From contig JAFGSB010000158.1 of the NCBI GenBank assembly GCA_016934825.1, positions 66,842-130,841 on the forward strand: 64,000 bases of DNA, given 5' to 3'. Positions 8,453 to 50,917 of the stretch are shown in pieces. The notes under the pieces were generated by a model, which was not told where the DNA came from, ran no database searches, and was given only the letters and a program-made list of their open reading frames with translations. A program made the position numbers and the translations under genes. Numbering within the stretch: position 1 is the first letter of the stretch; the number at the start of each line of letters is the position of its first letter. Origin of the DNA: Candidatus Zhuqueibacterota bacterium (GTDB taxonomy: Bacteria > Zhuqueibacterota > Zhuqueibacteria > Residuimicrobiales > Krinioviventaceae).

Positions 8453-8464
8453 TTGTTGGAGAAA

Positions 8465-9370
8465 ATGAAAATACTGGTTACAGGTTGTTACGGTTTATTG
8501 GGACAAACGGTTTGTGAACGTGCTCCAAAATCTTTTCTAGTTTACGGAGTTGATATACATGAGGGAAATATCGTTTTACCGGATGATAAATATTTTTCTC
8601 TTGATCTGACAGATCGAAAAAAAACTCTGGAATTATTGCAGGATTTAAAGCCGGATTATATTATCAATTCCGCCGCGTACACCGATGTTGACGGCGCGGA
8701 AACGGAACGGGAATTGTGTTGGAAAATCAATGTTGATCTTGTGGAAAATTTAATTTATGGCGCCCGTAAGATTAAAGCCGGAATCGGCCACATATCAACA
8801 GATTATATCTTTGATGGAAAATCAGGTCCTTATGCGGAAGACGCGCATCCCAATCCGATAGGATATTACGGGCGTTCCAAACTTGCCGCGGAGAATGCTT
8901 TGATTGGATCATCGGTGGATTATTTTATAGCCCGTACCATGGTCCTTTACGGAATGTCAAAGAACGGTAAAACCAATTTTGTCACCTGGCTCATCGCCCA
9001 GTTGACAAATCAACGACCGGTCAAGATAGTAAATGATCAATACGGAAATACGACCCTTGCGGATGAACTGGCCGAGGGTATTTGGACATTAATAAAAAGT
9101 GGTTATTCAGGAATTTTAAATATTGCCGGCCGGGAAATCATCAACCGTTATGAATTCGCCGTCAGAATTGCGGAGGTTTTTGGATTCGACAGGGATTTGA
9201 TAACAGCCGTAACCACCGCTGAATTCAACCAACCCGCACCAAGACCGTTAAATTCCGGCCTGATTGTTGACAAGGCTCTTAACGAGTTAAATATTGTGTT
9301 AAGCGATGTTGTTGAAGGATTACATAAATTTAAATCAATTTATTATTCGGGATCACTGGTGCCCGGTTGA
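8465..9370 (+). CDS. rfbD: dTDP-4-dehydrorhamnose reductase (RfbD family)
   Basis: MKILVTGCYGLLGQ Rossmann motif, SAAYTDVD and YGRSK catalytic region. Confidence 0.8.
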   Translation: MKILVTGCYGLLGQTVCERAPKSFLVYGVDIHEGNIVLPDDKYFSLDLTDRKKTLELLQDLKPDYIINSAAYTDVDGAETERELCWKINVDLVENLIYGARKIKAGIGHISTDYIFDGKSGPYAEDAHPNPIGYYGRSKLAAENALIGSSVDYFIARTMVLYGMSKNGKTNFVTWLIAQLTNQRPVKIVNDQYGNTTLADELAEGIWTLIKSGYSGILNIAGREIINRYEFAVRIAEVFGFDRDLITAVTTAEFNQPAPRPLNSGLIVDKALNELNIVLSDVVEGLHKFKSIYYSGSLVPG

Positions 9371-9602
9371 CGGAAACCTTAAGCAGAAATTAAGTTTTTT
9401 AAAAAATGAATCGATAAAATATAGGAGTTCATTTACTTAATAAGACAGGAAACAATATAATATCAGAAAATTTGAATAATTTGATGTTTAGGGTATTGTG
9501 TTCGGTATCAGCCGGCTACAAGTACTCCGATGAATAAAATTTTTTTCGTCCCGTAACGGTTAAAAGGAAAAACCTGTAAACACATAAATAGCGGAGCGGC
9601 CT

Positions 9603-16125: not shown

Positions 16126-16210
16126 ACCGAGGGATTGTGATCTCTTGTTGCAGGTAAATTGCATAGGGGAAATGAATAATCCGTAGATACACGCGGATAG
16201 GGGATGTTTC

Positions 16211-16277
16211 ACGCAGATACCGCGGATGGAGCAGATACAAAAAAACACAACCTCTGTCATTTCGACCGCAGGGAGAA
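16211..16277. repeat. Partial copy (upstream module plus left arm) of a MITE-like inverted-repeat element
   Basis: CGCAGATACCGCGGAT...CTGTCATTTCGACCGCAGGGAGAA is shared with 16585-16652. Confidence 0.6.
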
Positions 16278-16329
16278 TTTTTGAGTATAATTAAGACACA
16301 TACGAATCACTTGCAATAGAACCGGCTAT

Positions 16330-16386
16330 GGAGTGCATCGCCTTTATGCGATGCGGATCAGCCGTCCATAAAAGGACGGCACTCCG
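16330..16386. repeat. Nested double-hairpin element; its first hairpin is repeated at 16414-16438
   Basis: GGAGTGC[GCATCGC-CTTTAT-GCGATGC]...[CCGTCC-ATAAAAGG-ACGG]GCACTCC. GGAGTGTATCGCCTTTATGCGATGC recurs 84 bp downstream. Confidence 0.55.
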
Positions 16387-16584
16387 TGTGTAAAAACTAA
16401 TTCAAGCATTTTTGGAGTGTATCGCCTTTATGCGATGCAGTTATTTGCCACGCAAAAAAACACCCCGGAGCGTGGTCTCAAACATCATTATCTGAATTAT
16501 TACATATCCGGTCGTCGAGTAAGGCTGTCGGGCACAGCGAGACAGCCTGTACCGGGACGTCCGCTGATGTTGGAAAATGTCTCT

Positions 16585-16730
16585 CGCAGATACCGCGGAT
16601 ATCGCAGATACAATAAAAAGACCACTACTGTCATTTCGACCGCAGGGAGAAATCTTAAAATGTTTTACATGAACTGATACCTCTTCAAGAAACAAGATTT
16701 CTCTTCGCTGCGCTCATCGAAATGACAGAG
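16585..16730. repeat. Full MITE-like element with about 35-bp imperfect terminal inverted repeats
   Basis: CTGTCATTTCGACCGCAGGGAGAAATCTT...AAGATTTCTCTTCGCTGCGCTCATCGAAATGACAG; the arms are reverse complements. Confidence 0.65.
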
Positions 16731-16827
16731 TGGGTTATTTGGATGAAATTTTACAAAATAATGGAAATTTATTATTAGGTTCAGATTGTCTAATTACTGT
16801 GCGTACAAACCAGACAAAACGCAAATT

Positions 16828-16930
16828 CTGTCATTTCGACCGCAGGGAGAAATCTTATTATGTTTTACATGAACTGATACCTCTTTAGGAAACAAGAATT
16901 TTCTTCGCTATGCTCATCGTAATGACGGAG
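16828..16930. repeat. Second full copy of the MITE-like inverted-repeat element
   Basis: About 90% identical to 16628-16730 across roughly 100 bp, including both arms. Confidence 0.65.
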
Positions 16931-33584: not shown

Positions 33585-33765
33585 TGTTTTTCTCCAAATG
33601 TCTTAATAATGTAATCTTTGTTCTTTAATAAATTTTTTACTGCTTTTTTGTTTTTTGGAAATCAATTTTTCATTTAAACCATTTATTTCAATATTTTATT
33701 TCAAAAATAATATAAACTGTTTGCAAAATTAAGAAAAAATGACTATAATATCCTGAATATAGTTG

Positions 33766-33940
33766 AATAGAGGCGCCTTTTGCAAGAGTAAACACATCAA
33801 AGGATAAGCGTATCTGTTAAAGATGTGTTAAAAGGGCAACAGGCCGAAATAGTTCCGATACGCTTTAAGGAGCTATTGGGACGGTATGTGAACAACTACC
33901 GTACTGTCACGGAAAAAAATCCGTGGAGCGCTATTTATTA
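33766..33940 (+). ncRNA. Lysine riboswitch (L-box) aptamer
   Basis: Starts with AGAGGCGCC (P1 5' strand). Conserved AAAGGGCAACAGGCCGAA core and 3' ACUGUCACGGAAAAAAAUCCGUGGAGCGCUAU, paralleling the B. subtilis lysC leader (GCUGUCAAGAAA...UUGGAGGGCUAU). A T-run follows at 34003-34012; lysine genes lie downstream. Confidence 0.7.
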
Positions 33941-34031
33941 AACATGCTGATTAATAGAAAAACAGTAGGTTGATTGAAAAGGGCGCCCCGATTCTTTCGA
34001 CCTTTTTTTTTGTTTATTTCGTTTGTTAATT

Positions 34032-35027: not shown

Positions 35028-36419
35028 ATGGTAGTAATGAAATTTGGCGGTACTTCGGTAGCGGACGCCGCGGCCATGCGCAGAGTGGCGGAAATTGTGA
35101 AAACAAGAATAGATAAAAAACCCATAGTCGTTGTATCCGCGGTTGGCGGCCTGACTGATAATCTGGTTGCATTGAGCAAAGAAGCTAAAAACCGGAATAT
35201 GACAAAGGTTCAGGAAGTTGTAAATGTTGTTACGGAAAGGCATTTAAAAATAGTAAGGGACCTTGGTCTGGATAAAAATGGTTCACTGGTAAATGTTGTC
35301 ACCGAAACCGCCGAACAACTAAAAAAGGTATGTACAACAATCTCTGAGGCGGAGTCGATGCAAAAAGCCCTGGTGGATGAACTTTTAAGCACCGGGGAGT
35401 ATCTCTCTTCCCATATTATGGCTGCTTACCTTGATTCTGTCGGTATGAACGGTGTGTGGGCGGACGCGCGGGAGATACTGGTGACGGATTCCGTTTACGG
35501 CAGCGCCAAACCCAATATCGGAGAATCAACTGAAAAGGCAAAAGCGAAATTACTGCCGCTGGTTTCCGATAATAAAGTACCGGTTATTCAGGGATTTATC
35601 GGCCGGGACAAAAACGGGAAAATTACCACCCTCGGCCGGGGCGGTTCCGATTATACCGCTTCACTGATCGGCGCCATGCTTGATATGGAAGCGGTGGAAA
35701 TCTGGTCCGATGTCAGCGGGGTATTAACGGCCGATCCGTCTCTGGTGCCGGAAGCAAAGAGAATTCTGCTCATGAGTTTTCAGGAAGCGGCCGAACTGGC
35801 ATATTTTGGCGCCAAAGTTCTGCACCCGGCAACGATGCATCCGGCTGTTGACAAAGGTATTCCCATTTACGTATTAAATTCGATTTATCCGGAACAGGGG
35901 GGGACAAAGATCGCTCTGTCTTCCGATATTGCGGAAGACAAAATTTGCGTTGTGAAATCAATTGCCTATAAAGAAGGATTGACAGTTGTTACCGTTAACA
36001 GTACCAGAATGTTGATGGCGCATGGTTTTATGGCATCGATATTTCAGATTTTTGAAAAGTACAATACTTCCGTCGACCTTGTGGCCACATCGGAGGTGAG
36101 CGTATCGGTCACGATTGATAATACGGAACATCTTGAAGAGATCAAAAAGGAAATCAGCGCTTTTGCCACCGTAGGCGTTGTGAGTAACAAGGCGATTGTC
36201 TGTCTGGTCGGCCAGCACCTGAAACGCACCAGCGGTATGCCGGCAAGGATTTTTGGCCTGCTCGGCGATGTGCGCATCCATTTGATCTCACAGGGCGCTT
36301 CTGAAATTAATATCAGTTTTGTGATTGACGAAGTGGACTTGAAACGTGTCATTCAGCGGTTGCACGATCATTTTTTCGGCAACTCTTATGACGTGGAAAT
36401 TTTTGCTGAAAATAATTAA
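35028..36419 (+). CDS. lysC: Aspartate kinase
   Basis: VVMKFGGTSVADA N-terminal kinase motif; two C-terminal ACT domains. Confidence 0.9.
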   Translation: MVVMKFGGTSVADAAAMRRVAEIVKTRIDKKPIVVVSAVGGLTDNLVALSKEAKNRNMTKVQEVVNVVTERHLKIVRDLGLDKNGSLVNVVTETAEQLKKVCTTISEAESMQKALVDELLSTGEYLSSHIMAAYLDSVGMNGVWADAREILVTDSVYGSAKPNIGESTEKAKAKLLPLVSDNKVPVIQGFIGRDKNGKITTLGRGGSDYTASLIGAMLDMEAVEIWSDVSGVLTADPSLVPEAKRILLMSFQEAAELAYFGAKVLHPATMHPAVDKGIPIYVLNSIYPEQGGTKIALSSDIAEDKICVVKSIAYKEGLTVVTVNSTRMLMAHGFMASIFQIFEKYNTSVDLVATSEVSVSVTIDNTEHLEEIKKEISAFATVGVVSNKAIVCLVGQHLKRTSGMPARIFGLLGDVRIHLISQGASEINISFVIDEVDLKRVIQRLHDHFFGNSYDVEIFAENN

Positions 36420-36424
36420 TTTAT

Positions 36425-36608
36425 AACGCCAGTGTTCGGTTAAATCCGAACACGCCACTCTAAACATATTATATTATTAAAATTATCAGATATGAAATCA
36501 TTATTTGACTTTTATGTAAAATTTGAATTGTTTTAATTACATTAATTGATTTTATTAAACTAATAAACCGGATCAGGCAGCGGTGTCCGGTTAACGGACA
36601 CCGCTGAA
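36425..36608 (+). repeat. About 190-bp hairpin-terminated intergenic repeat, copy A
   Basis: 5' CGCCAGTGTTCGGTTAAATCCGAACACGCCACTCTAAACATATTA ... 3' CCGGATCAGGCAGCGGTGTCCGGTTAACGGACACCGCTG. Homologous along its length to copies at 41836 and 49876. Confidence 0.7.
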
Positions 36609-36625
36609 TTTATAAGGATATTTTT

Positions 36626-37357
36626 ATGAAAATTGGTATTTTAGGATATGGCAGGATGGGGCACGAAACTGAAAAAATCGCCGCATATTCCGGTCATTCT
36701 GTCGCGGCAATTTTTGATATCGATAAACCGTTTGAAAAAACTTCGGATATTAACGGTTCGGAAGTGATAATTGATTTTACCCTGGCGGGAGCGGTAATCG
36801 ATAATTTAGAAACGGCGGCGTTTTTGGGAGTGCCAATCGTCGAAGGGACTACCGGCTGGCTTGACGGTTTTGATAAAGTAAAACAAATAAAAAATCTGAC
36901 CATGATTTACAGTCCCAATTTTTCTATTGGGGTATACCAGTATACCAAAATAGTCGAATACGCGGCAAAAATAATGGGTACCCTGGATAGTTACGATTGT
37001 TATTTACACGAGTGGCATCATACCGGCAAAGCCGACAGCCCCAGTGGAACGGCAAAAAAATTGTCGGATATACTATTGAATAATTTACAACATAAAGATA
37101 AAGCCCTGTTCGATACAAGCCATGGAGTTATTGATAAAAAAGCGCTGCATGTAACATCCACAAGGGTTGGCAGGGTTCCCGGAACACATGAGATCGGTTT
37201 TGATTCCTTATATGATAGTATTCTGTTGAAACACCAGGCCCACGGCCGGGAAGGATTAGCTTCCGGCGCGGTAAAAGCCGCCGAATGGATTATTGGTAAA
37301 AAAGGAATATTTACAATGGACGATTTCATGAATGATTTAAACAGGCAAAGCAGTTAA
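36626..37357 (+). CDS. dapB: 4-hydroxy-tetrahydrodipicolinate reductase
   Basis: MKIGILGYGRMG Rossmann motif; DapB C-domain with EWHHTGKADSPSGTA. Confidence 0.9.
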   Translation: MKIGILGYGRMGHETEKIAAYSGHSVAAIFDIDKPFEKTSDINGSEVIIDFTLAGAVIDNLETAAFLGVPIVEGTTGWLDGFDKVKQIKNLTMIYSPNFSIGVYQYTKIVEYAAKIMGTLDSYDCYLHEWHHTGKADSPSGTAKKLSDILLNNLQHKDKALFDTSHGVIDKKALHVTSTRVGRVPGTHEIGFDSLYDSILLKHQAHGREGLASGAVKAAEWIIGKKGIFTMDDFMNDLNRQSS

Positions 37358-41739: not shown

Positions 41740-41754
41740 TATTGAACTGATCTT

Positions 41755-41783
41755 GGAAAAGCCCTTTTAAAGGGCTTTTTTAC
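41755..41783 (+). terminator. Rho-independent terminator of the lysine operon
   Basis: GAAAAGCCCTTTTAAAGGGCTTTTTTAC: perfect 7-bp GC-containing stem, 5-nt loop, then a U-run. Confidence 0.8.
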
Positions 41784-41835
41784 TTTATGATCCTTTATAA
41801 AAGGTTTGACATGAGAGTTTGAATTAATTATATTT

Positions 41836-42033
41836 AGCCTGACACCAGTGTCCGGTAAACCCCGGACGCGACACTCTTAACATATTTATATATTAACGTA
41901 TTCTGATATAATATCATTTATTGATTTGTTTGAGAAAAATAAATTTTTATAATTATTTAACCTGATTTTATTTAAATTGTAAGCCGTATCAGGGAGCAGT
42001 GTCCGTGAACCGGACACCAGTGTTAGCCTGAGT
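41836..42033 (+). repeat. About 190-bp hairpin-terminated intergenic repeat, copy B
   Basis: 5' AGCCTGACACCAGTGTCCGGTAAACCCCGGACGCGACACTCTTAACATATT ... 3' CCGTATCAGGGAGCAGTGTCCGTGAACCGGACACCAGTGTTAGCCTGA. Confidence 0.7.
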
Positions 42034-42053: not shown

Positions 42054-43112
42054 ATGAAAGTTAAAGATTATCAACGCGCCCCGCTCTTCAATGATATACG
42101 GCTTGGAATAGTATTGATTATTATTCTTGTCTTTAGTTTTACTTTTTATCTTATCCGTGTTCCTTCCGGTATCGGATTTGCCATATCGGCTTTTTTGGCC
42201 CTCATTTTATTTATTTCCCCGTTTATTTTATTGGCCAATCCAACCCTAATTAAAATTCTGCGTAAAGATATTGAAACCCATCCGATACATGTATGGATTC
42301 TGCCGTCATTTTTGTTCGTTGTTTTATTAATCTACGCATTCATAACAGGACATGCTGACGGTCCGGGTATTTTAAAAGGTTTCCTTTATTGTTTCGTTCC
42401 TTTTTTACTGTTTATGCTTTTGAAAAACAGTTCGCCGGTATTGACAATTCCTGATGTTATCCTTGTCCTGGTTTTGTGGCTTCCGGTTGAATTCGGATTC
42501 GTACCCGACCTTGGTATCCCGCACGTGCAATCCGTTATCAACGTGTATTTATTGATCGGTTTGAATATTATATTATATGTTTACCTGGTTATGCGTCAAT
42601 TACCCGATATGGGTTATACTTTCAGATTAAAGGATCATGAATGGCGGACCGCTGTCATGAATTTTTTAATCCTATTGGTGATAGCAATACCGGTCGGGCT
42701 GCTCACTCATTTTATCGTTTTTTCCCGGACTATGCCCTCTTTTGGGGAAATGATACAAAAATTACTGTTTATTTGTTTTTTTGTCGCCCTGCCGGAGGAA
42801 ATATTGTTCCGCGGGGTCATCCTCAATTTAATTGAAAAACAATTGGGCGGGGTAAAAAAAGCGGGTACGATCGCCATGTTGATATCATCCGTTTTATACG
42901 GACTGGCGCACGGTAACAATTCAAGTCCTCCTTTTATCGATTTATCGCCTGGATCGTTGGGAACCTGGCATGTACCATGGGCTTTTATGCTGCTGGCAAC
43001 GATAGCCGGTGTCTTTTACGGTTTGACCTATATAAAGACCCGTAAGATTTTTGCCGCTGTAATAGTCCATTTGTTCATTAACTGGAGCTGGTTTGTTTTT
43101 TTCAGCGGTTAA
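42054..43112 (+). CDS. CPBP-family (CAAX/Abi) intramembrane metalloprotease
   Basis: EEILFRG motif 1, LYGLAH motif 2 and a C-terminal His motif; 8 to 9 TM helices. Confidence 0.7.
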   Translation: MKVKDYQRAPLFNDIRLGIVLIIILVFSFTFYLIRVPSGIGFAISAFLALILFISPFILLANPTLIKILRKDIETHPIHVWILPSFLFVVLLIYAFITGHADGPGILKGFLYCFVPFLLFMLLKNSSPVLTIPDVILVLVLWLPVEFGFVPDLGIPHVQSVINVYLLIGLNIILYVYLVMRQLPDMGYTFRLKDHEWRTAVMNFLILLVIAIPVGLLTHFIVFSRTMPSFGEMIQKLLFICFFVALPEEILFRGVILNLIEKQLGGVKKAGTIAMLISSVLYGLAHGNNSSPPFIDLSPGSLGTWHVPWAFMLLATIAGVFYGLTYIKTRKIFAAVIVHLFINWSWFVFFSG

Positions 43113-45743: not shown

Positions 45744-47786
45744 TTGTTACCCGTAGTAACAACAATTGAAACAAAGTGTAAACGCTGTTATTCCTGTATA
45801 CGGAATTGTCCGGCAAAGGCGATAAAAGTCGAAAAAGGCCAGGCAATGGTCATAACCGAACGATGTATTGCCTGCGGTTATTGCGTCAAAGTGTGCCCGC
45901 AGAACGCCAAAAAAATACGTGATGATATTTTTCCCACCCTGAATTTATTATCTTCTAAAAGTCGAACAGTCGCCGTATTGGCGCCGTCTTTCCCGGCAGC
46001 TTTCCCGGATCTGGAACCCGGGAAAATTTTAACCGCGATACGGAAACTTGGATTCAGCCGCGTATATGACGTGGCGTATGGCGCTGATTTGATCAGTAAA
46101 GAATACAGGGAGTTATTGGACTCCAATATTATGCCGTTTATTATTTCCTCCCCCTGTCCCGCAGTTGTTAATTATATTGAAAAATACTATCCCATTTTGA
46201 CAATGTGTCTGGCCCCGATTGTATCTCCCATGATCGCTATCGGCAGGTACATCAGCAAATATATTAATCCTGATGCGTTTATTGTTTTTATCGGTCCCTG
46301 CATTGCAAAAAAGAAAGAAATGGGCGACCCGAAAGTCACAGATGTAATAAATCAGGTTTTGACTTTTGATGAATTGAAAGAGCTGTTTACGAAAAAAAAT
46401 ATACAACCCGGCAACGAATTACCGGGTGAATTTGACGGTCCGAATGCCCACCGCGGAAAACTGTTCCCGGTTTCCGGGGGATTGTTAAAAAGCGCCGAAT
46501 TAAATTATGATATTACGGATAATGATATCATTGTCACCGAGGGTAGGGATCGCGTTCTGGAGATTTTACAGAAAGCTTCCGAAGGTCAAATTGAGGCTAA
46601 GTTTTTGGACCTGCTTTTTTGTGAAGGATGTATCAACGGCCCGAAAATTGACAATAACCTTTCGGTGTTTGTAAAAAAAGACAAGGTGATTAATTATATT
46701 AACAGCCGGGTTGAAGAGGAAAAAGAATTTACCCTGGAAAATTTCGATTTAAGCGGGCTGGATCTTGGACGTAAATTTACCAATGAATATAAGGACGAGA
46801 AAATTCCGGATGAAAACGAAATAAAAGCAATACTGCAACTTACCGGAAAAAGTAATCCTGAAGATGAACTGAATTGCGGGGCCTGTGGTTATATATCCTG
46901 CCGTGAGAAAGCGATTGCCGTTTACCAGGGACTGGCCGAGGCTGAAATGTGCCTGCCCTATATGCTGGACAGACTGGAAAAAGTCCAAAATGAGCTGCAA
47001 AAGTCCAATATAGAACTAAAAGAATCCCTGGATACCCTGAAAAAGACCCAACAACAGCTTATTCAATCGGAAAGGCTGGCTTCAATTGGAGAATTGGCCG
47101 CGGGAGTGGCTCATGAATTGAACAATCCGTTAGGGGGAGTGCTAATTTTCAGCAGTCTGTTACTAGAACGAAAAAACATCAGCGATCCGGAATACAGGGA
47201 TTTGAAAAAAATTATTGAAGAGACCGAGCGCTGCAGGAAAATTGTGCACGGATTGTTGGACTTTTCCCGACAGTCCCGTTTGCAGGCCGCTATCGCCGAT
47301 CTAAACAAGATATTAATCAGCACCCTGACCCTGATTGAAAATCAGGTCCTGTTCCAAAATATAAAAATTGTCAGGGAACTGAATCCGGATATCCACAAAG
47401 TATTTGTTGATGTCGGCCAGATTCAGCAGATAGTATTAAATATTATTTTCAACGCGGCTGAAGCGATGGACGGAAAAGGTACGCTAATTGTAAAAACCGG
47501 TTTTTCCCCGGACAAAAAATTTGTACTTGCCAGCTTTAAAGATACCGGAACCGGAATATCGGCGGAACTGCTAAATAAAATTTTTGATCCTTTTTTTACG
47601 ACCAAACCCCCCGGCAAAGGTACAGGATTGGGCCTGTCAATATCTTACGGTATCATAAAAAAACACAAAGGCGATATTATTGTTGACAGCAAGCCGGGGA
47701 AAGGGACCACATTCACAATCAAATTGCCTTCCGCCCTGGTCATGCAGGATACATACCAATTGAATAATAAAATTGTACAAAAATAA
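45744..47786 (+). CDS. Sensory [FeFe]-hydrogenase-like (HydS-type H-cluster domain with two N-terminal 4Fe-4S clusters) fused to a histidine kinase
   Basis: 2x CxxCxxCxxxCP ferredoxin motifs; H-cluster motifs SSPCPAV (L1 variant), [10 protein letters not shown] (L2) and FCEGCINGP (L3). A coiled-coil is followed by the HisKA H-box [12 protein letters not shown] and HATPase_c N/G boxes (GTGLGLSI). TTG start. Confidence 0.8.
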
Positions 47787-47903
47787 AGTTCAATTTGTCA
47801 GTCATGTTTATGGATAAAAAATGGAATAGTTTATAACAGGATTCAATATCACATGCGTCCGGATAACGGACATCAAATATCCTGTATTCATAAAAGGATG
47901 ACA

Positions 47904-48245: not shown

Positions 48246-48832
48246 AAAAAAATGAAAAAAATTTCACTTTTTTGAAAAAAAGACTTGCACATTTTATTTC
48301 GTTTGTTTATAATTAAATAAAGTTGTGAAAAAAAGTACAGCTTTTGTTTATTATCATACGGAACCGATTTTCTATACATCTACAGTGAGGGTCCTGACCT
48401 GCCTCCCCGATATTACGGCCCACTACTCTTGAGACGATACCAGGATATTGAATTAAACAATACCTTTGAGTTGTCTTTATTATGCTACGAGGATTGGGAC
48501 GGTGTTTACGTATATGAGTACGATCCGGAAAATGGTAAAGGAATGTTTTTCTATTTATTGTGATATTATAGCCGCTAATCACCGACTTTTTTTGAATAGG
48601 GATTACAAGTTATAACTTCAACAAGCAGAATAAAACCGGATTGATCGATTTCATTGTAAAATCCACAAGATTGCCCAATCAAATTTACTAAAATTTTTTT
48701 CAATCAGAAAATTTTTTGACATTGTTTTTGTTGATTTTGAAAATTTTAATGATGCATTAATTCATCATGTGTCCATGTTGAAGCGATTGTCATATTTAAG
48801 ATTTTGTATTGAAATTCGATGGAGGTGAAGTA

Positions 48833-49861
48833 ATGATTATCAAAGTGGACGAATTTATTGCGTTTTTATATAAATGTCAGGATAAGGGATTTTCCGGTTT
48901 TGATCAAATTATTTTACCCGTCAGGTCCGGGAATAAAGATTCGGATTCGTTTTATTTTGCGCAATTATCAAAATCAAAAGAATTTGATATAGACTCCTAC
49001 CGGACCGTCGATCCATTAAAAATGTTTTTCTTTCTTCCCCGTGAAAAAATTCTGCCGCAAACATTTGATAATACAAAACGCTTGATCGTCGGCGCAAAAG
49101 GTTGTGATATCAGGGCGCTGAAAGTGCTTGACAAGGCCATGATTAATGAAGATTTTGTCGATCCCGCTTATTTTTATTGGCGGCAAAATACCACAATCAT
49201 TAGCGCGGATTGTACCGACATTGCCCCGACCTGTCATTGTAATCTGGTAGACGGACATCCTTATGCCGAAGCTAATTTTGATCTGAATCTTTCCCGCTAT
49301 AAAGATGTTTATGTCGTCACATCGGGAAGTGAAAAGGGCGAGGAATTGCTGGAATTATTAAAAAAGGAATGTAAAGTTGAACCCGGGTCCCCAGAAATTT
49401 CTGCCAATATTCAGGAGCAAAGAAATAAAATAATCCGGTTATTGGAAAAACAAAATGAACAATACGAGAGAAATAATGAATTTGAAAAATTAAAACAAAA
49501 CCCGATGGATAATTGGTCAGATGAATCCAAAACATGTATCGGGTGCGGCGCCTGTACGAATATCTGCCCGACCTGTTATTGTCTTATTTTAAATGATGAA
49601 ACAAAAGCGGAAGAATTTGTCAAGGTCAGGAGCATGGATTCCTGCCAGTTAAACGGATATGCCCGCGTTGCCGGCGGAAGCACGCCCCGGCCTAAAATGT
49701 TCCAGAGATTTCGTAATCGTTATTTATGTAAATTTCTATTTATGAAAAGTAATTTTGATATGTTGGGCTGCACGGGGTGCGGAAGGTGTACGGAAGCATG
49801 CGCGGCCCAAATTGATTTTCGTCAGGTAGTCAATTCTGTTTTGAACGCGGTTGTCGATTGA
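48833..49861 (+). CDS. AsrA/HydB-like iron-sulfur subunit (anaerobic sulfite reductase A / sulfhydrogenase beta family)
   Basis: C-terminal CIGCGACTNICPTCYC and CTGCGRCTEAC clusters; typical length. Confidence 0.65.
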   Translation: MIIKVDEFIAFLYKCQDKGFSGFDQIILPVRSGNKDSDSFYFAQLSKSKEFDIDSYRTVDPLKMFFFLPREKILPQTFDNTKRLIVGAKGCDIRALKVLDKAMINEDFVDPAYFYWRQNTTIISADCTDIAPTCHCNLVDGHPYAEANFDLNLSRYKDVYVVTSGSEKGEELLELLKKECKVEPGSPEISANIQEQRNKIIRLLEKQNEQYERNNEFEKLKQNPMDNWSDESKTCIGCGACTNICPTCYCLILNDETKAEEFVKVRSMDSCQLNGYARVAGGSTPRPKMFQRFRNRYLCKFLFMKSNFDMLGCTGCGRCTEACAAQIDFRQVVNSVLNAVVD

Positions 49862-49875
49862 AAATAGATATGTAT

Positions 49876-50062
49876 AGCACTAGTGTCCGGTTAAACCCGG
49901 ACACGACATTCGTAACATATTATTTTATTAACGTTTTTGGATATGATTTCATTAATTGATATGGTTGAATAAAATTAAATTTTTCCAATTTTTAGCTTGA
50001 TTTTATTGAACTTGTAAACCGGATCAGGCAGCGGTGTCCGTTAACCGGACATCAGTGATGTT
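49876..50062 (+). repeat. About 190-bp hairpin-terminated intergenic repeat, copy C (inside the hydrogenase operon)
   Basis: 5' GCACTAGTGTCCGGTTAAACCCGGACACGACATTCGTAACATATTA ... 3' CCGGATCAGGCAGCGGTGTCCGTTAACCGGACATCAGTGATGTT. Confidence 0.7.
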
Positions 50063-50095
50063 ATAGTAGAATTTTTGAGGTAACAGGAGAAGATT

Positions 50096-50917
50096 ATGAA
50101 TAACCCGTATGAGGTCGTACCTGCCACGATATATGAAATTATTCAGGAATCTCCGTTAATTCGCACGTTACGTGTTCAACCGGAGAAACCCATACCGTTT
50201 AAAACCGGACAATTTATTGAACTGACCATACCCGGCATTGGCGAGGGTCCGTTTACTCCTTCATCATCACATTTCATCAGCGAAAATATGGATATTACCA
50301 TCATGAAAACCGGTTTTGTGACGGAATATGTTCACAGAGCTAAAGTCGGCGACAAAGTGGGTTTGAGGGGACCCTACGGTTCGCATTATCCGCTCGAAAA
50401 ATTCAAGGGTAAGGACCTTTTGATACTTGGCGGCGGCTGCGGACTCGCGCCGTTACGATCACTTTTTACGACCCTGCTGCATGAAGTGGAAGATTATAAC
50501 AGCATTACATTTTTCGCGGGAGCTAAAACGCCAAAGGATTGTATCTACAAGGATTCGGTGACGGATTGGAGAAAATATGACAATGTCACGTTTATGCGCA
50601 GTGTCGATGTTGTTCCCGATGGCGAAGAGTGGGACGAGGAAGTTGGGCTGGTTACTTCGCTGTTATCCAAACTGGATATTGATACGGCTGTAAATCCGGC
50701 GGTGGTTTGCGGACCGCCTGTTATGATGAAGTTTGGTACAATGGATTTGATCAAATGCGGTTTCCGGGAAGAAAATATATATCTGTCGATGGAAAAGAAA
50801 ATGTACTGCGGTTTCGGCCAATGCCGGCATTGCGTGATGGGCGAGTTTTATGCCTGCAAAGACGGCCCCGTGTTTACTTATGCCCGGATAAAGAATGAGG
50901 AGGATATTTGGGAATGA
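50096..50917 (+). CDS. AsrB/HydG-like FAD/NAD(P)-binding oxidoreductase subunit with C-terminal [2Fe-2S]
   Basis: FNR-like fold (GQFIEL, LILGGGCGLAPLRS) and CGFGQCRHCVMGEFYAC cluster as in PyrK/AsrB/sulfhydrogenase gamma. Confidence 0.8.
   Translation: MNNPYEVVPATIYEIIQESPLIRTLRVQPEKPIPFKTGQFIELTIPGIGEGPFTPSSSHFISENMDITIMKTGFVTEYVHRAKVGDKVGLRGPYGSHYPLEKFKGKDLLILGGGCGLAPLRSLFTTLLHEVEDYNSITFFAGAKTPKDCIYKDSVTDWRKYDNVTFMRSVDVVPDGEEWDEEVGLVTSLLSKLDIDTAVNPAVVCGPPVMMKFGTMDLIKCGFREENIYLSMEKKMYCGFGQCRHCVMGEFYACKDGPVFTYARIKNEEDIWE

Follow-up and report, generated by a model that had tools for sequence, protein, structure and literature searches.

Among the described systems that resemble the repeats reported herein, QMITE2 of Coxiella burnetii comprises elements 150-190 bp in length, whose terminal inverted repeats (TIRs) span 23-29 bp and whose flanking direct repeats, each unique in sequence, are 7-11 bp long (7 or 9 bp in Table 1) (Wachter et al. 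2018, PMC5896051; PMC10969869). QMITE2 insertions occur at the 3′ ends of ORFs, where they create small C-terminal overlaps, and truncated copies of the element resemble lone REPs (PMC5896051). In Correia and ERIC elements, the TIRs form stem-loops within mRNAs on which RNase III or RNase E acts, altering the stability of the transcript (PMC10969869).

The DNA analyzed in this report, hereafter called the window, is a 64-kb stretch from candidate division KSB1 that carries four dispersed copies of a repeat family with a hairpin at each end. Matches of 100% to the proteins MBN2413674.1, MBN2413692.1, and MBN2413703.1, together with the names given to these and to homologs, assign it to an uncultured member of that division. 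Given the target-site duplications (TSDs) that flank the copies, their inverted repeats, and the empty orthologous sites present in relatives, we consider it very likely that the copies represent a new MITE family, i.e., a non-coding, non-autonomous transposon. The family is real and, as far as tested, undescribed, and it belongs to a common type of mobile DNA in bacteria rather than to a new regulatory class.

A Family of Four Dispersed Repeats

An earlier note on this DNA had reported three homologous repeat copies, estimated to be ~75-80% identical along their full length and to share one orientation. These three copies, termed A, B, and C, are indeed present and lie essentially where they had been placed. 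An nhmmer profile built from them recovers each with an E value of 1e-55 to 1e-59, which is far beyond chance. Global pairwise identities are 74-82%, and the mean column identity in a MAFFT alignment is 81%. All three reside on the plus strand, and each is exactly 180 bp long when its boundaries are set by the TSDs and by the empty sites in relatives. The same profile search of the window also uncovered a fourth family member, copy D (E = 1.3e-10), which is 171 bp long, diverged or decayed in sequence, and ~61% identical to A-C. Because copy D is on the minus strand (9354-9524), the shared orientation holds for A-C and not for the family, whose 3:1 bias is not significant at n = 4.

The copies and their surroundings in the window are as follows:

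9354..9524, minus strand: copy D, antisense to its flanking genes and directly before the stop codon of the RmlD-like gene
36427..36606, plus strand: copy A, between lysC (35028-36419) and dapB (36626-37357)
41843..42022, plus strand: copy B, in the presumed 5′ leader of a CPBP/Rce1-like gene (42054-43112)
49878..50057, plus strand: copy C, between a 4Fe-4S (asrA-like) gene (48809-49861) and an FAD/NAD oxidoreductase (asrB-like) gene (50096-50917)

Thus, the family totals four dispersed copies in 64 kb. No further copies were found in Logan contigs that extend the window by ~4 kb upstream and ~3 kb downstream. Our sample consisted of the four copies and two orthologs, among them the ortholog of copy B in contig L005, a close relative, which is also exactly 180 bp in length.

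A gene-free stretch of ~1.1 kb elsewhere in the window (16200-16930) is dense with other small repeats. It includes two units of ~115 bp (16616-16730 and 16816-16930) that are 87% identical and have the inverted ends CTGTCATTTCGACCGCAGGGAGAAATCTT...AAGATTTCTCTTCGCTGCGCTCATCGAAATGACAG, as well as a solo left end of this unit at 16242-16282. These ~115-bp units look like a second MITE-like family. The same stretch carries the repeat GGAGTG(C/T)ATCGCCTTTATGCGATGC at ~16331 and again at ~16414.

Hairpin-Ended Inverted Repeats and a Noncoding Core

The outer ends of the family can be written CACCAGTGTCCGG...CCGGACACYRGTG. In copies A, B, and C and in the L005 ortholog of B, the two ends align over ~26-28 bp once the 3′ end is reverse-complemented, and a weaker match of the same kind is seen in copy D. 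These TIRs have the consensus CACCAGTGTCCGG-TTAA(AC)-CCGGACAC and extend to the very termini of the element. Each TIR is itself palindromic and therefore yields a hairpin with an 8-bp stem at each end. The hairpin sequence differs among copies, with copy A carrying GTGTTCGG/CCGAACAC. The hairpins that the earlier note had described at both termini are real, as 92.5% of stem cells are paired when both terminal hairpins are scored in five sequences. For copy A, the two ends are arranged as follows:

~36427-36454: 5′ TIR and hairpin of copy A, with the stem formed by 36432-36439 and 36446-36453
~36578-36606: 3′ TIR and hairpin of copy A, with the stem lengthened to 12 bp in this copy

Inside the TIRs, the element has a conserved, AT-rich core of 125 bp as well as a conserved sub-terminal block specific to each end (ACTCTAAACATATTA at the left end and CCGGATCAGGCAGCG at the right end). 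The GC content of the copies is 32-36%, versus 42% for the window. Coding capacity is absent, given that every copy has stop codons in all six frames, that the longest open stretch (45 codons) is not conserved, and that no small ORF is conserved among the copies. Likewise, no promoter-like site is common to copies A-C. The earlier contention that the repeats are not terminators was also upheld: copies A, B, and C contain no intrinsic terminator, either internally or at their termini, and the only one observed nearby (41754-41782) lies outside copy B.

RNAs corresponding to copies A-C are predicted to fold far better than shuffled sequences (z = -4.0 to -6.9). The main contribution to these folds comes from the terminal hairpins or, for copy C, from pairing of one TIR with the other. 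Such stable predicted transcript folds match the published description of MITEs (PMC10969869).

Target-Site Duplications and Empty Orthologous Sites

A search for TSDs at each copy revealed 9-bp duplications that are perfect for A and B, slightly decayed for C, and degenerate for D. The probability that two flanks would match at nine of nine positions by chance is ~4e-6 per copy. For copy D, the two flanks read TATTCGGGAT and TACTCCGAT on the plus strand. The duplications bordering the other three copies are:

36418..36426: left TSD of copy A, AATTTATAA, overlapping the lysC stop codon by its final 2 nt
36607..36615: right TSD of copy A, AATTTATAA, with the dapB ribosome-binding site (GGA) directly after it
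41834..41842: left TSD of copy B, TTAGCCTGA, a 9/9 match with the right copy
42023..42031: right TSD of copy B, TTAGCCTGA
49870..49877: left TSD of copy C, ATGT-ATAG, with one T lost relative to the right copy
50058..50066: right TSD of copy C, ATGTTATAG

Syntenic contigs from KSB1 relatives were gathered by using homologs of LysC, the 4Fe-4S protein, and the RmlD-like protein. The site occupied by copy A is empty in five of these contigs (L005, L006, L007, L008, and L011), whose LysC identities are 93%, 85%, 75%, and 68%. The spacer between lysC and dapB in these relatives is only ~8-17 nt long, measuring 17 nt in L005, L006, and L007 and less in L008 and L011. The window reads TAATTTATAA[element]AATTTATAAGGA at this site, and the junctions in full are TAA-TTTATAA[CGCCAGTG...CACCGCTG]AATTTATAAGGA. 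The corresponding empty site in L005 reads TAATTTATAAGGA and holds a single copy of the 9-mer AATTTATAA that is duplicated in the window. Because several outgroups at graded distances all have an unoccupied A site in which the TSD sequence occurs once, the parsimonious polarity is insertion rather than deletion.

Copies C and D provide comparable evidence. The C site is empty in four contigs from relatives at 83-84% identity (L033-L036), where the spacer between the asrA-like and asrB-like genes is 45 nt. The D site is empty in L039/L040 (a 79% relative), in which the RmlD-like protein ends YYSD* and is followed by a 72-nt spacer. In the window, this protein (ORF 8453-9370; dTDP-4-dehydrorhamnose reductase family) instead ends YYSG-SLVPG* because its reading frame runs 17 nt into copy D, and the five residues SLVPG are encoded by the element (9354-9370). 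An equivalent extension, SPVSG, along with the first bases of the D element, is found in L041 (an 85% relative). The empty C and D sites of the more distant relatives carry a single, diverged counterpart of the TSD.

Thus, relatives have unoccupied orthologous sites for A, C, and D, and the nearest relatives share B and D with the window. The copies can be arranged by age in that D is common to the 85% relative (L041), B is common to the 93% relative (L005), and A is absent even at 93%. This series shows that the family has been active over an extended period in this lineage.

Judged by the published definition that we applied (PMC10969869, section 2.1), the family has every structural feature of a prokaryotic MITE. 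The copies are short (180 bp, or 171 bp for D, compared with a limit of <500 bp) and carry neither a transposase nor other coding sequence. Their TIRs, at ~26-28 nt, are within the expected range of ~4-30 bp, and the direct repeats that flank them decay with age. The four copies are dispersed within 64 kb and are polymorphic for presence or absence. Finally, they are AT-rich (32-36% GC), and their transcripts are predicted to form stable stem-loops (z of -4.0 to -6.9). Neither the window nor the syntenic loci contain a transposase gene or an autonomous parent IS.

Genomic Contexts of the Copies

Copy A is located within an operon for lysine biosynthesis that is headed by a lysine riboswitch and ends upstream of copy B:

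33760..33941, plus strand: full-length lysine riboswitch (RF00168, 114 bits) that heads the operon
41754..41782, plus strand: intrinsic terminator of the lysine operon, upstream of copy B

The gene order downstream of the riboswitch is M20 peptidase-lysC-[copy A]-dapB-dapA-dapF-aminotransferase-lysA. Copy C follows the asrA-like gene, which together with the asrB-like gene heads a membrane-bound hydrogenase-type cluster. The earlier note had placed each copy immediately after a stop codon and inside an operon. An operon location is correct for A and C. It does not apply to B, which begins 103 nt past the lysA stop codon, downstream of both the operon terminator and a sigma-70-like promoter match (11/12, TTGACA-17-TATATT, 41806-41834).

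The site of copy B is also filled in L005 (7739-7918), where the ortholog has the same TSD and is 87.2% identical. Between this contig and the window, other intergenic regions are 84.6-88.0% identical, which is the same as for B, and 4-fold degenerate sites of the flanking genes are 76.5% identical. Purifying selection on copy B was considered and rejected, given that its 87% identity to the ortholog is that of other intergenic DNA. Because the identities are equal, they provide no evidence for special selection on the element. In the 85% relative L006, the region after the lysA terminator (8700-8845) resembles the 5′ end of a bacterial group II intron (…GTGAGATGGAATCTGAAGGAAGC…).

An isolated hairpin that resembles the TIRs was also identified:

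47850..47875, plus strand: solo TIR-like hairpin, CACATGCGTCCGGATAACGGACATCA, 26 nt, ~30 nt upstream of a DRTGG-domain gene

The solo hairpin is retained at the orthologous site in L005 (~11405) and in L036 (~541; CACCAGTGTCCGGTTAACGGACATCA in that contig). An old copy probably left it behind as a truncated, REP-like fragment, and its conservation means that it could have a host function of its own. In the window, this region also encodes a 680-aa sensor histidine kinase of the Fe-hydrogenase-like/4Fe-4S type (45744-47786). The kinase gene is missing at the matching position of L005 (11233-11468), and in this 93% relative the DRTGG-domain gene directly follows the gene that lies upstream of the missing kinase.

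Database and Literature Searches

Searches of sequence collections revealed no relatives of the family. At gathering thresholds, the only Rfam match in the whole window is the lysine riboswitch at 33760-33941, and a permissive Rfam search with copy A produced only sub-threshold chance matches. A scan of GTDB species genomes with the pattern ATCAGGNAGCNGTGTCCGN{3,7}CGGACA gave three matches in unrelated organisms, each confined to the ~35-nt region of the pattern. The pattern CCGNATCAGGNAGCNGTGTCCG matched 21 sites in JGI metagenomes, none of which is a family member; approximately two-thirds of these fall in a single conserved stretch of G+C-rich coding sequence from an unrelated gene, and the rest are scattered. 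A distant-mode blastn search of plasmids with copy C returned no match.

Among IMG/VR viral contigs, the sub-terminal pattern had no matches and the hairpin pattern had 34, with none of the seven loci examined matching the family outside the hairpin. The contigs carrying these seven loci are 51-71% GC, and several of the loci are clusters of palindromes in contigs of ~70% GC. Specifically, the perfect palindrome CAGTGTCCGG-N5-CCGGACACTG is clustered in L043, L044, L050, and L060 (~70% GC), whose sequences are unrelated to the family outside the hairpin. These viral clusters may be phage operator or terminator repeats.

A literature search yielded no paper that names both KSB1 and MITEs. The novelty proposed in the earlier note therefore stands as far as tested, with no match in Rfam, in plasmids, in the pattern scans of viral, genome, and metagenome sequences, or in the literature. 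To the same extent, the family is restricted to this KSB1 lineage.

Proposed Mechanism and Alternative Explanations

The fixed 9-bp duplication points to 9-bp staggered cleavage, which is a hallmark of DDE-type transposases. In the mechanism we propose, a transposase encoded elsewhere in the genome, outside the window, would recognize both ends of the element, cut the target with a 9-bp stagger, and integrate the element to leave 9-bp TSDs. Transposition would be of the DDE type, by either a cut-and-paste or a copy-paste route, and an IS elsewhere in the genome would mobilize the copies in trans. Insertions would tend to persist where they do little harm, such as at gene boundaries and in short spacers, so that A would now be co-transcribed within the lysine-riboswitch-controlled operon and C within the hydrogenase-type operon. 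Copy B would occupy a 5′ leader, and copy D lengthens a protein by five residues. Once transcribed, the terminal hairpins may affect the processing or stability of the operon mRNAs, by analogy with Correia and ERIC elements.

Two extensions of this proposal can be envisioned, although we judge it unlikely that even one of them holds. One possibility is that the hairpins of A and C have been co-opted as RNase-processing or stabilizer sites. If so, the genes downstream (dapB-lysA in one operon and the hydrogenase subunits in the other) would be uncoupled from the upstream part of the transcript, and co-option of A would partly free dapB-lysA from control by the lysine riboswitch. The other possibility is that the transposition system recognizes hairpin DNA yet makes 9-bp staggered cuts. 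Perfectly palindromic TIRs are atypical of most DDE IS ends and recall the REP-type elements of tyrosine transposases. The palindromic TIRs and the conserved solo hairpin could be the mark of a system with both properties, a combination that, to our knowledge, is undescribed for known IS families.

The earlier note had offered three options for these repeats: MITEs with hairpin ends, structured intra-operon RNAs, and binding sites for a protein factor. The first is borne out by the 9-bp TSDs, the TIRs of ~26-28 bp, and the empty orthologous sites in relatives, and the other two are not needed to explain the data.

A selected, cis-acting RNA that functions within operons in processing, stability, or translation coupling would be repeated because of its function and not because of mobility. 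Copies A, B, and C are sense to their flanking genes and would be transcribed, and their terminal hairpins are stable (z = -4 to -6.9). In addition, the 5′ stem of copy A carries one compensatory change from C-G to U-A, several other changes are compatible with G-U pairing, and the divergence of orthologous B is lower than that of 4-fold degenerate sites (12.8% vs. 23.5%; Fisher p = 0.001). However, covariation that would support an RNA structure, assessed for the two hairpins in five sequences, is no better than in shuffled controls, of which 359 of 500 reach the observed score. The same operons exist in close relatives with no element and with spacers of only ~8-17 nt or 45 nt, copy D is antisense to its neighbors, TSDs are present at each copy, no Rfam family matches, and B, at 87% identity, is just as conserved as other intergenic regions. 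Based on these findings, a structured RNA is quite improbable as the reason why the copies exist. Exaptation after insertion is possible, but it would not be the origin of the copies.

Also to be weighed against a MITE mobilized by a DDE-type enzyme is a REP/REPIN-like or IS200/IS605-derived (PATE) element, whose hairpins would be recognized as single-stranded DNA stem-loops by a tyrosine transposase (Y1/RAYT or TnpA). Such an origin would be consistent with G+C-rich palindromic hairpins at both ends of an AT-rich body, with the persistence of a solo hairpin at a conserved site in the manner of a lone REP, and with a single orientation for three of the four copies, although this last bias does not reach significance with so few copies. 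Y1 transposases insert their elements beside a fixed tetra- or pentanucleotide and do not duplicate the target. The copies in the window are flanked by 9-bp TSDs that are unrelated to one another in sequence, and their left flanks (..TTATAA, ..GCCTGA, ..GTATAG, and ..TCGGAG) lack a common motif. Moreover, the ends are true inverted repeats up to the termini, and no Y1_Tnp-type gene is present among the genes of the window or the syntenic loci. We find this origin highly improbable. Assignment to the RAYT-mobilized REP/REPIN class, which is defined by the absence of a TSD, was rejected on the basis of the 9-bp duplications, and assignment to the PATE class was rejected given the inverted-repeat termini, the TSDs, and the lack of a fixed 4-5 nt target.

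Least credible of all is the proposal that the repeats are host protein-binding sites, in which the GTGTCCGG-N-CCGGACAC dyad serves as an operator for a dimeric regulator and 180-bp paired operators have spread by recombination or duplication: dyad symmetry is present at each end, the solo copy ~30 nt upstream of a gene start is conserved in three genomes, and unrelated phage contigs with a high GC content contain clusters of similar palindromes, but operators leave unexplained the TSDs, the exact 180-bp unit, the non-palindromic sub-terminal blocks, and the insertion polymorphism, the genes around the copies have unrelated functions (lysine synthesis, a CPBP protease, a hydrogenase, and rhamnose synthesis), and a factor that recognizes the dyad would most simply be the transposase.

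Implications

The MITE reading means that an active or recently active family of non-autonomous transposons resides in candidate division KSB1, a phylum known only from metagenomes. It also means that nature has provided a clean experiment in which the same operons, including one controlled by a lysine riboswitch, occur either uninterrupted or with a 180-bp insertion that has hairpin ends. This arrangement could be used to examine how MITEs affect polycistronic mRNAs. In addition, the insertions can serve as markers of strains or lineages, and the five residues that copy D adds to the RmlD-like protein are a warning for gene annotation.

Comparison with Known Systems

Several IS families duplicate 9 bp of target DNA, including the IS4/IS10/IS50-type, IS1, IS903 group, ISAs1, and ISLre2 families, and IS256 duplicates 8-9 bp. 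As in those families, the elements described herein have TIRs of ~20-30 bp and termini of the 5′-CA...TG-3′ kind (CAC...GTG). They differ in that their TIRs are palindromic, which is unusual among such IS families, and no transposase or full-length IS with these ends was found in the window or the syntenic contigs.

The family also resembles RAYT-mobilized REP, BIME, and REPIN sequences, which are likewise short, G+C-rich extragenic palindromes that are paired into a larger mobile unit. These sequences are located between convergent or co-directional genes, and when transcribed their hairpins can stabilize the upstream mRNA. Insertions of REPs and REPINs occur with no TSD, whereas the family in the window has 9-bp TSDs and a conserved AT-rich core of 125 bp, and neither the window nor the syntenic loci contain a RAYT gene.

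Correia elements (CREE) of Neisseria and the ERIC/IRU elements of enterobacteria share with this family the properties of small, non-coding elements that have TIRs, lie between genes, and are co-transcribed with them. Correia elements duplicate a TA dinucleotide rather than 9 bp, and they bear promoters and an IHF site. In contrast, the family described herein has no conserved promoter, and we know of no sequence similarity between the two. Correia and ERIC elements are the best model for the effects that copies A and C might have on their operon mRNAs.

QMITE2 differs from the present family in its phylum, Gammaproteobacteria as compared with KSB1, and no sequence similarity is expected. It also bears a REP of the GTAG type that is the target of IS1111, whereas the palindromes in the window are the TIRs themselves and show no sign of targeting by an IS. 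The two families also have features in common. Both occupy AT-rich intergenic sites or sites 3′ of ORFs with small C-terminal gene overlaps, both include truncated hairpins that resemble solo REPs, and both have individual insertions that are conserved between strains and no identified parent transposase. Thus, by its length, its TIRs, and its direct repeats, QMITE2 is the closest architectural match to this family.
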